Shown piece by piece: positions 12,001 through 15,000 of a stretch of 16,301 bases of DNA (positions are counted from its first letter, which is position 1; each line of letters starts with the position of its first letter). The position numbers were made by a program. Source of the stretch: a virus (Duplodnaviria > Heunggongvirae > Uroviricota > Caudoviricetes); IMG/VR virus record IMGVR_UViG_2541047164_000041, positions 1 to 16,301 of that record; one strand, 5' to 3'.

Positions 12001-15000
12001 AAGGTTTGTTTTCATGACCGCTTTATAGCTGTAACCAGTACCGGAGAACAGCCAGATGCTATGGGATTCAGAAATTCAGCATCATGCCTGATTGGCGAAA
12101 TGTTCTCGTGCTGACTTGTTGGCAGATAGAAAAAAGCGTTTTCGTAAAAATCCGTCTCTTGGAATGGGCGACTGGCGATTCTTTATTAGTGAGCCGGGAA
12201 TTATTTCAATTGAGGATTTACCACCTGGCTGGGGATTACTTCACGTTGTTAACGGAAGAGTACGGAAAGTACATGGGTGGCCCAAGGGTAATTGCTGTTG
12301 GGGTAATCCTGACGATAAGCCATTTACTGGAAATAAGCAGGTTGAATGCGATTACATGTTGTCTGCATTAAGGCGCATGGAGTTGAGAGGGCACCTTAAT
12401 GAAATATATGACGGTGTAATTGTTAATAAGAAAGAAGGAAACGCGGCATGACCACTATTACCGACAAAGAACTGATTAAAGAAATCAAAGAGCGCATAGG
12501 CAGCTTGGACGTTCGAGACAATATTGAGCGCCGTGCTTATGAAATTGCACTGGCATCGCTGGAAGCAGAACCGATAGCGTGGGAATGCGGTGAAAACATA
12601 ATCCTGTTTAACCCTGACACAGTTGAAGCATACGCAAAACGTGCGGAAATATCACCTAAACCACTATTCTCCGCGCCGCCAGCGCTGGTAGTGCCTGATA
12701 AGTTGCCGCGTGAATACAGAAACGGTTGGCCTCTTGCGTATAGTGATTATGCTGAAGGCTGGAACGACTGCCGCGAAGCCATGCTTCAGGGAGATAAATC
12801 ATGATTAATCGTATCAAGCTGGAGCACATCCTCGAATATGCCAGGCAGCAGAGGCATATTGGTCAGCATTGTAAAATTCCACCAGGAGATATGGTTGAAA
12901 TCATGGAGATTGCCATGCGCAAGGCTGGCAACTCTCCGGTAACTCCGGATGGTTGGATAAGCTGTAGTGAGCGAATGCCGAACGATAAACAGTATGTTTG
13001 GTGTTGGGGGAAGTCTTACGGCTGGACTGAGTGCGATACCTTCGAAGGGTATTACGATTGTTCGAGAAACAAATGGTGGGCAGTTACTGACAATGGGGAA
13101 GAACCGGCATCGAAAGTAACCCACTGGATGCCGCTACCGGAGCCGCCGCAGGAGGTGAAATGATGAATTGGCCTGAAGCATTCACCGCAGTTGGAGTTGC
13201 AATAGCGGTGGCATTTATTCTGTATTCGCTTTTCCGCTGGGGATAAAGGAATGTTCGCTCTGATTCAACGTGGTCAGATATACACGGACAGAGCCGGATA
13301 CCCTGTGGTGATTACTCGCAGTACTCAGCACTCAGTGTTCTTTCGACGCATGGACGGGCGCTCCGGACGGGTACGCATTGGTGAGTTCAACAACCTGTTC
13401 GAACATATTGACCAACAGGAGTACCGCAAAATTCTGGCGGGCACTGAGCAGGAAATGCGCCTGAAAAAATTACGCGCAATGCAACGGAGGTGATACATGC
13501 ATACGGCTTTTGAGTTCTGGGTTCGCAAGACATTCGGCAATCGCTACGACCTGACCCGTGATGTCGACGGCTTCTACTGCCGTGAAGTTGTGAAACGAAT
13601 GTTTGACGTGTGGTGCCACTGCCGTGGATGAAAGTTTTATGAGGTTGGCATGCAGACAATCATCTATCAGATAACCCCCAGCAAATGGTGTACGGAGAGA
13701 GTCCTTATTGCATCAACAGGGCTAAAGCCCGGCACCATCGAGCGGGCCAGAAGAAAGTCATGGATGCAGGGAAAAGAATACCGCCATTACGCTGTAGTGA
13801 ACCGCCCCGGTTTTCCTGGAGAGTGTTTTATCTGTGAACTCAGGCTGCCAGATCATCGTTTCCGATGGAAGCATAATAAGCTTTTTCTGCTTCTGCCGGA
13901 GGAGTATGGCCCAGCCTTCCCAGCAATCGTCGATTGTTATACCAGTCCACCCACGTTAGTGTGGCCAGTTCCACTTCTGCACGGTTTTTCCAGCTCTTAC
14001 GGTGTATTACCTCCGCTTTGTAAAGACCATTGATGCTCTCAGCCATCGCGTTGTCATACGAGTCGCCTGTACTCCCTGTTGATGCCAGTAATCCGGCTTC
14101 TTTTAGTCGCTCCGTATAGGCCAGTGACACATACTGAGAGCCTTTATCGCTGTGATGGATGGTGCCAGACGGACGACGGGCCCATTTACCCCGGAGAACA
14201 CCGGCAAGTCCCATAACCGCCATGAGACGTGCCACTGTACATCTGGCCACCCTGATTCCTTCCCGTAACAACTGACGCCAGACTTTACGCACACCGTACA
14301 CCTGATGATTTTCATCGTATACGCGCTGTATCTCTCTCTTCAGCCAGTCGTCGTGCTGCGCACGGGCACTGCGTTTATCCGGATGATGTCGCTGTTGCTG
14401 ACAATGGTAATACGTTGACGGGGCAATATGCAGTTCGCTGCATACCGGTCCGACCCCGTACTGCTCACGCAGCTTATCCAGCAGTGGCATCATTTTTTCC
14501 AGAGGCGGTCGAACTCCGCCTTCGCAAAATAAGCGGAAGCCTGGCGAAGGATATCGTTACTGCGGCGCAGTTCACGATTTTCACGTTCCAGCTCTTTCAG
14601 ACGCTGACGTTCAGCGCTGGTGAGCCCACCATCACCGCCCCCGGTATCCCGCTCATGCTGGCGAACCCAGACACGCAGAGTCTCCGGCGTACAGCCAATC
14701 TTTGGGGCAATGGAACAAATTGCCGCCCACTGTGAGTCATATTCATCCTGACTTTCCAGAACCATACGAATCGCCCGCTGACGGACTTCGGGGGAAAAAC
14801 GAGTATTTTTAGTCATCCTGTTTACCTCTTTCTCAGGGAGTTTAGTCTCCAGGATTTCCGGGGCGGTTCAGTAGAAGGTGATCCTGGGCATTACAGTGAA
14901 TGCCTGTACAACATCGAAGAAATTATGCGATGGATCGAAAACCAGAAACAACCAGGTGCCAAAAATGCAAGTTCCGGTTAACCTGTTAATGCTCCTGGAC

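Follow-up and report, generated by a model that had tools for sequence, protein, structure and literature searches.

A predicted catalytically dead IS629 derivative in the xis gene of a Stx1-type prophage, its deletion probably received by gene conversion from a copy resident in prophage Sp4

The sequence analyzed here is a stretch of 16,301 nucleotides (nt) from a tailed virus of the Caudoviricetes, positions 1 to 16,301 of IMG/VR virus record IMGVR_UViG_2541047164_000041; the whole of this stretch is referred to below as the window. It carries an insertion sequence (IS) that sits in the excisionase gene, xis, of a lambdoid Stx1 prophage of the VT1-Sakai/Sp15 type at mlrA (yehV). Judged by its sequence, the element is best regarded as a defective derivative of IS629/IS1203 (IS3 family) that would be catalytically dead and non-autonomous. 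The same deletion was found at other sites in genomes of Escherichia coli O157:H7, and the pattern of full-length and deleted copies at these sites bears on how the deletion came to be in xis. The features of the element, in window coordinates, are as follows.

13798 to 14870, minus strand: IS629/IS1203 element of 1,073 bp, 237 bp short of the full 1,310 bp through an internal deletion, bounded by its terminal repeats
14846 to 14870, minus strand: left inverted repeat (IRL), on the orfA side; the two arms of the repeat read TGAACCGCCCCGGAAATCCTGGAGAC and TGAACCGCCCCGGTTTTCCTGGAGAG
13798 to 13822, minus strand: right inverted repeat (IRR), on the orfB side; holds the marker base at window 13811
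13794 to 13797, no strand: left copy of the target-site duplication GTAG; a single GTAG is present in the uninterrupted xis of VT1-Sakai
14871 to 14874, no strand: right copy of the duplication, by comparison with the empty site of VT1-Sakai
14490 to 14816, minus strand: orfA, 108 amino acids, HTH_Tnp_1 domain (Pfam PF01527, 47.3 bits), intact
14419 to 14535, minus strand: ALIL pseudoknot (Rfam RF01497), stimulator of programmed -1 frameshifting at the orfA/orfB overlap, intact
13840 to 14493, minus strand: truncated orfB, 217 amino acids against 296 at full length; HTH_21 intact, the first ~60% of the rve core, including D136, gone
14184 to 14185, no strand: deletion junction, between nt 686 and nt 924 of the full-length element in sense orientation

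The ends of the element, TGAACCGCCCCGG...CCGGGGCGGTTCA, form imperfect inverted repeats of the type 5'-TG...CA-3', the arms of which match at all 13 of the terminal 13 bases and, after a 3-base mismatch, at nine further bases (~22/25 overall). Window positions 13797 and 14871 map to the overlapping VT1-Sakai positions 2966 and 2963 (sequence L002), which accounts for the 4-bp duplication. The overlap of orfA and orfB is ATGA, with orfB in the -1 phase, and the pseudoknot scored 121.5 bits against a gathering score of 50, covering positions 1-117 of the 117 in the model. Nothing that is required in cis has been lost, since the inverted repeats at both ends, the 4 bp of duplicated target, orfA and the pseudoknot for frameshifting are all intact. 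The 1,073 bases that remain are 100% identical to the copy at the same site in strain F7349, and copies of this kind are named IS1203 or IS629 in RefSeq genomes and in Sakai. Overlapping reading frames with a frameshift signal, TG...CA ends, a duplication of 3-4 bp and near-identity to named copies are all present, and what is missing is a complete DD(35)E triad with a K/R seven residues past the Glu, D136 having been deleted. By sequence, then, the element would possess every structural hallmark of the IS3 family save the complete catalytic triad.

A preliminary description, made from the sequence alone, had proposed an internally deleted IS629 element of 1073 bp whose OrfB lacks the first Asp of the DDE triad, and comparison with the 1,310-bp copy at the same xis site of strain F7349, which served as reference for the deletion, bore this out. 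Positions 687-923 of the full-length element are missing, exactly 237 bp in one clean gap, so that the full length, the size of the loss and the 79 codons lost in frame, all given in the preliminary description, were exact, as was the length of the element. Had the reference OrfB possessed the same short linker, there would have been no deletion to explain, but the F7349 protein has 296 residues against 217 here, and the region around D136 is absent from the window copy. The exact prefix (405 nt) and the exact suffix (716 nt) of the comparison sum to the length of the query, which means that there is no overlap at the junction, that the placement of the gap is unambiguous and that, between the window and the full-length copy of F7349, the breakpoints at 14184/14185 share no microhomology. 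The contexts of the two breakpoints matched at 13 of 40 positions, compared with 10.9 +/- 3.0 for all pairs spaced by 237 bp within the IS. Microhomology or imperfect repeats as the cause of the deletion were rejected on these two counts, a level of matching close to background and zero overlap.

At the protein level, the open reading frame at 13840-14493 passes directly from ...MGLAGVLRGK to WARRPSGTIHHSDKGSQY...DNAMAESINGLYKAE..., the jump that had been noticed beforehand. OrfB residues 104-182 (79 amino acids) are lost in frame (KVRTTISRKAVAAGDRVNRQFVAERPDQLWVADFTYVSTWQGFVYVAFIIDVFAGYIVGWRVSSSMETTFVLDALEQAL), and the lost segment contains the motif WVADFTY with D136, the first Asp of the DD(35)E triad. 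The remainder retains D195 (in HSDKG) and E231 (in AMAES), again as previously described, and K238, seven residues past E231. In the full-length protein the spacings (59 from the first to the second Asp, 36 from there to the Glu) fit the IS3-family DD(35)E signature. The Pfam rve profile matched full-length OrfB with 96.9 bits over profile positions 2-101, while the window OrfB reached only 29.2 bits, over positions 60-101 and under the cut-off of 32.6 bits. A PDB sequence search with full-length OrfB gave no match at E <= 0.01, and so the assignment of the Asp, Asp and Glu residues rests on the rve coverage and on the IS3 spacing signature. From this loss it is predicted that a transposase made from the window copy cannot be catalytically active, and that the element is unable to move by itself.

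The insertion has divided xis after about codon 49 and left the integrase gene intact:

13650 to 13797, plus strand: 5' fragment of xis, cut by the IS (uninterrupted in VT1-Sakai, L002 2819-3073)
14871 to 14981, plus strand: 3' fragment of xis, by comparison with VT1-Sakai and F7349
15015 to 16301, plus strand: prophage integrase, 428 amino acids; mlrA/yehV, the attachment site of the Stx1 prophage, adjoins in related genomes

The prophage is 99.9% identical to VT1-Sakai, a Stx1 phage integrated at yehV/mlrA. A full-length IS629/IS1203 was found at exactly this position of xis in four complete O157:H7 genomes (F7349, F7508, AR-0429 and FRIK804), each of which covered the query to 100% in two pieces spanning 1,358 bp; the RefSeq annotation of F7349 lists split xisR pseudogenes. 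The 1,310-bp copy of F7349 has flanks, orientation and GTAG duplication identical to those of the window element, and the 16.3-kb window as a whole is 99.97-100% identical to the F7349 prophage. The deleted form in xis is seen in a draft contig, AVQT01000042.1; the two sequences overlap by 6.46 kb, and there the contig and the window are 100% identical.

The deletion is real, as first described, but it is not private to this element. Of 5,426 complete E. coli genomes, 102 share the junction, which a 44-bp probe spanning it located at 108 places; a 100-bp probe had been uninformative, its halves matching full-length copies separately. About 100 complete genomes, most of them O157:H7, have a deleted copy beside pchA in prophage Sp4, its location in each of the genomes looked at. 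In this prophage (CP-933M-type), the copies of Sakai, EDL933, Xuzhou21 and F7349 have a SASA/DUF6645 esterase gene on one side and pchA on the other. In Sakai this copy is already annotated, as ECs1089/ECs1090 with two 'IS1203 partial' repeat regions; it is 1,073 bp in length, has the same junction, and differs from the window copy at one base in 1,073. Look-ups of the exact truncated OrfB protein returned the Sp4 context for nearly all contigs. A 39-mer across the junction had no match among the GTDB species representatives and none among metagenome contigs; one IMG/VR contig matched, once more in the Sp4 context. These sequence comparisons indicate that the deletion is a widespread allele of O157:H7 with its residence in Sp4, and not a local event at xis.

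Two observations on individual records belong here. The Sp4 copies (Sakai, L003 2136-3208, and likewise L004, L007 and L019) have no target-site duplication, their flanks being GCGGAT and TTAATT, which suggests that the Sp4 copy took part in an adjacent deletion or in recombination between IS copies after its insertion. One occurrence of the junction, at 39539-39582 of NZ_CP124741.1, is on a record of 286,775 bp from EDL933 that is classed as a plasmid, and the size of the record suggests a chromosomal fragment mislabeled as such.

The single base by which the window and Sp4 copies differ provides a marker. It is the T on the plus strand at window position 13811, corresponding to A at nt 1297 of the full-length element, 14 nt from its right end and 374 bp from the deletion. 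The base is A in the window copy and in the full-length xis copy of F7349, and C in the deleted copies of Sp4. The idea that the T at 13811 is a private mutation of the xis insertion was rejected, as a marker probe with this base matched perfectly in 1,272 of 5,972 records; being common, the base is of use only for telling the window copy from that of Sp4. The presumed donor, the deleted Sp4 copy with C, and the presumed recipient, the full-length xis copy with A, are both present in F7349.

Two further sites in O157:H7 display the same replacement. At abgT, the deleted form is present in the complete genomes of NE 1092-2 and FRIK1989 and in the draft AERQ01, while EDL933, 86-24 and dozens more among the matches listed carry a full-length IS at the same position. 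Here the full-length copy of EDL933 has A at nt 1297 and the deleted copies have C, like Sp4, which implies that the deletion and the marker arrived together. The abgT flank of NE 1092-2 (L014, at about 866-874) reads TGACCAAA in place of GACCGAAA, one G fewer than in EDL933 and AERQ01, a difference that may be real or may be an assembly indel. In a prophage gene for a DUF6645 protein, the deleted form was found in TW14588 only, with a full-length IS there in many genomes, and the deleted copy has A at nt 1297, as in xis. At all three sites, xis, abgT and the DUF6645 gene, the full-length IS629 of related genomes has the same position, orientation and flanks.

The same deletion might, in principle, have occurred anew in the xis copy, by a site-specific or structure-driven event removing the same 237 bp. 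In keeping with such an event, no base that the window copy retains, nt 1297 among them, differs from the full-length xis copy of F7349. With zero microhomology and breakpoint contexts that resemble background, however, a repeat exact to the base is improbable, and at abgT the deletion travels with the marker base of the donor, unlike a new deletion. Independent recurrence is thus a very improbable explanation, the least credible of those considered, and from the lack of homology at the breakpoints all deleted copies would be expected to share the deletion by descent.

The preliminary description had also concluded that the element is non-autonomous with intact ends, which agrees with the present data, and that it could be mobilized in trans, for which no support was found here, full-length copies being known at xis, abgT and the DUF6645 gene alike. 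Under such mobilization, a deleted element of the Sp4 type would have been moved into xis by the OrfAB of full-length copies, and the full-length xis copies of the four complete genomes would be independent insertions into a hot spot or later conversions back. Intact inverted repeats, a clean 4-bp target duplication and the 17-25 IS629-matching places per record in related complete O157:H7 genomes, possible sources of transposase, are in keeping with this, as is a deleted copy borne on ISEc8 that is described below. But position, orientation and duplication are identical to those of the full-length copies in near-identical prophages, and at nt 1297 the window has the base of the full-length xis copy rather than that of the deleted Sp4 copy; these identities argue for a single original insertion at xis. 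The deleted form, moreover, replaces a pre-existing full-length insertion at three of the three O157:H7 sites tested. IS3-family transposases such as the OrfAB of IS911 act preferentially in cis, which also counts against mobilization in trans, and we regard it as an improbable route into xis.

The full-length copies at the same sites, taken with the abgT marker, point to gene conversion between IS copies, and not to transposition of the defective element. The best explanation for the window copy is that the Sp4 allele converted a resident full-length xis copy by ectopic homologous recombination, and from the sequence comparisons we would put the probability of this at roughly 60%. An F7349-like ancestor would have carried a full-length copy in xis and a deleted copy in Sp4, and ectopic recombination would then have copied the deletion from the latter into the former. 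The conversion tract would have covered nt 687-923 and ended before nt 1297; the A still seen at this position in xis and in the DUF6645 gene is what would be expected of a shorter tract. The resulting xis element would make no active transposase, and could move or be excised only with OrfAB supplied in trans from full-length copies.

Several points weigh against this explanation. Since the gap is all that sets the window copy apart from the xis copy of F7349, no marker separates a short conversion tract from a new deletion, and the direction, from full-length to deleted, rests on counts of genomes and not on a phylogeny. The search for a full-length counterpart of the ISEc8-borne copy (L010), which has a 3-bp duplication, found none, so transposition in trans may have happened there. 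The arrangement seen in the window was present in none of the 5,426 complete genomes and only in the draft contig AVQT01000042.1. In the draft, moreover, two homopolymer runs are each shorter by one T than in VT1-Sakai and F7349, and given these deficits the interior of the IS could have been filled from the wrong copy during assembly.

This last point leads to an assembly artifact, in which the source would truly be full-length in xis, the interior of the repeat would have been filled with the deleted Sp4 variant, and the marker, only 14 nt from the flank, would have been assembled correctly. Chimeric filling would give just such a copy, deleted and with A at nt 1297, and the occurrence in a single draft contig and the homopolymer deficits relative to the Sanger-sequenced phage and F7349 fit as well. 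On the other hand, the contig is 320 kb in length and reads through the IS, suggesting that the repeat was resolved, and the deleted variant makes up about one of the ~20 IS629 copies per genome, so that filling from a consensus would yield the full-length form. The same replacement is also found in finished genomes, at abgT (NE 1092-2 and FRIK1989) and in the DUF6645 gene (TW14588), which indicates a real biological event there. An artifact at xis is accordingly judged unlikely, although it is the most credible of the alternatives to gene conversion.

The deleted form was detected at two further sites. In an island next to ureD and a phosphoethanolamine transferase gene, it is present in pig strain NJS001 and in STEC799, where the only full-length counterpart at the same site was a 95%-identical match in the O103 strain ML775, which is weaker evidence than at the other sites. 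The NJS001 copy (L016; pig gut, 5.1 Mb) has an additional single-nucleotide polymorphism, G at nt 1087, and a TAT duplication. The copy within ISEc8 is on AVQV01000012.1 (L010 37-1108), a plasmid-like contig that encodes TraT; it has a 3-bp GGA duplication and an additional 1-bp deletion (1,072 bp), and its orfA was called at only 72 amino acids. A search with the flanks of this site found no full-length counterpart and gave only matches in three pieces, because the flank is ISEc8, which carries IS629 about 100 bp away in other genomes. By sequence, this may be a defective element inserted at a site of its own, and it was the only candidate of the kind found.

In the prophage, a split xis makes it probable that excision is impaired and that the Stx1-type prophage is locked in place, and a full-length or a deleted IS alike keeps the gene disrupted. 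Excision of IS629 promoted by the IS-excision enhancer (IEE) depends on transposase (PMC9943667), so that loss of the IS from xis would need transposase from other copies. As the window element cannot promote its own transposase-dependent excision, it may contribute to holding the toxin prophage in the chromosome.

Elsewhere in the window, the two runs that are one T shorter than in VT1-Sakai (Sanger) and F7349 are at 1205 and 10717 (TTCTTTCTTT and CCTTTTTTAT). The former is inside the homologue of VT1-Sakai H0045, where the deficit would shift the reading frame, and both could stem from errors in sequencing the source draft. At about window position 2957, in replication gene O near the iterons of the origin, 7 bp of the VT1-Sakai sequence are missing. 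This deletion is apparently common to F7349, since the window and F7349 agree there, and the RefSeq annotation gives the F7349 replication protein as frameshifted.

The deletion allele as such is already known, being present and annotated in reference O157:H7 genomes, and defective IS copies are routine. The replacement of live copies at fixed sites by a dead allele through recombination may be undescribed, and would be a small addition to a well-known process. It has some practical bearing, in that the presence and position of IS629 are used for typing O157:H7 and for reconstructing its evolution. If copies at one site switch between full-length and deleted forms by recombination, the length of the IS at a given site is unstable as a character. 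The deletion allele also offers a natural marker with which gene conversion between copies of the IS can be measured. A more speculative idea, to which we give little credence, is that the allele spreads by gene conversion, silencing IS629 copies singly, and that its OrfAB product is dominant-negative and damps both transposition and IEE-dependent excision. Such a truncated OrfAB would keep the DNA-binding and multimerization regions without the first catalytic Asp and, if the idea were true, would restrain the most active IS of O157:H7 as a brake that propagates itself.

The literature searched contained no description of the 237-bp deletion, of ECs1089/1090 or of gene conversion of IS629, and no reference to accession AVQT01. 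Rump et al. 2011 gave the IS629 sites in Sp4 as 'ND', and the only deletion mentioned there is a different one, of 86 bp, in O55:H7 (PMC3271280).

Among known systems, the window copy is closest to the full-length, 1,310-bp IS629/IS1203 of O157:H7, with the same inverted repeats, orfA, ALIL pseudoknot, C-terminus of orfB and 3-4-bp duplication, and differs from it by the absence of nt 687-923 and hence of OrfB residues 104-182. The deleted IS629 of Sp4 (ECs1089/ECs1090 in Sakai and its counterpart in EDL933) is of the same length and has the same junction, but it is at another locus, is without a target duplication, and has C and not A at nt 1297.

The window copy also resembles non-autonomous IS derivatives mobilized in trans, including elements like miniature inverted-repeat transposable elements (MITEs), in its intact ends, its dead transposase and the autonomous copies counted in related O157:H7 genomes, which together supply the prerequisites for such mobilization. 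Defective copies at sites that never held the autonomous form, the mark of elements mobilized in this manner, were not seen at xis, abgT or the DUF6645 gene, all of which hold full-length copies in relatives. No evidence of transposition of the window element itself was found, the sites checked having been inherited from full-length insertions, and, unlike a MITE, it still encodes orfA and most of orfB.

The concerted evolution of repeated elements by ectopic gene conversion is a general phenomenon in bacteria, and the pattern described here is similar to it: one allele replaces another at fixed sites, and the length of the tract varies, nt 1297 having been co-converted at abgT but not at xis or in the DUF6645 gene. 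It is unlike the general case in that the allele which spreads is a loss-of-function deletion.

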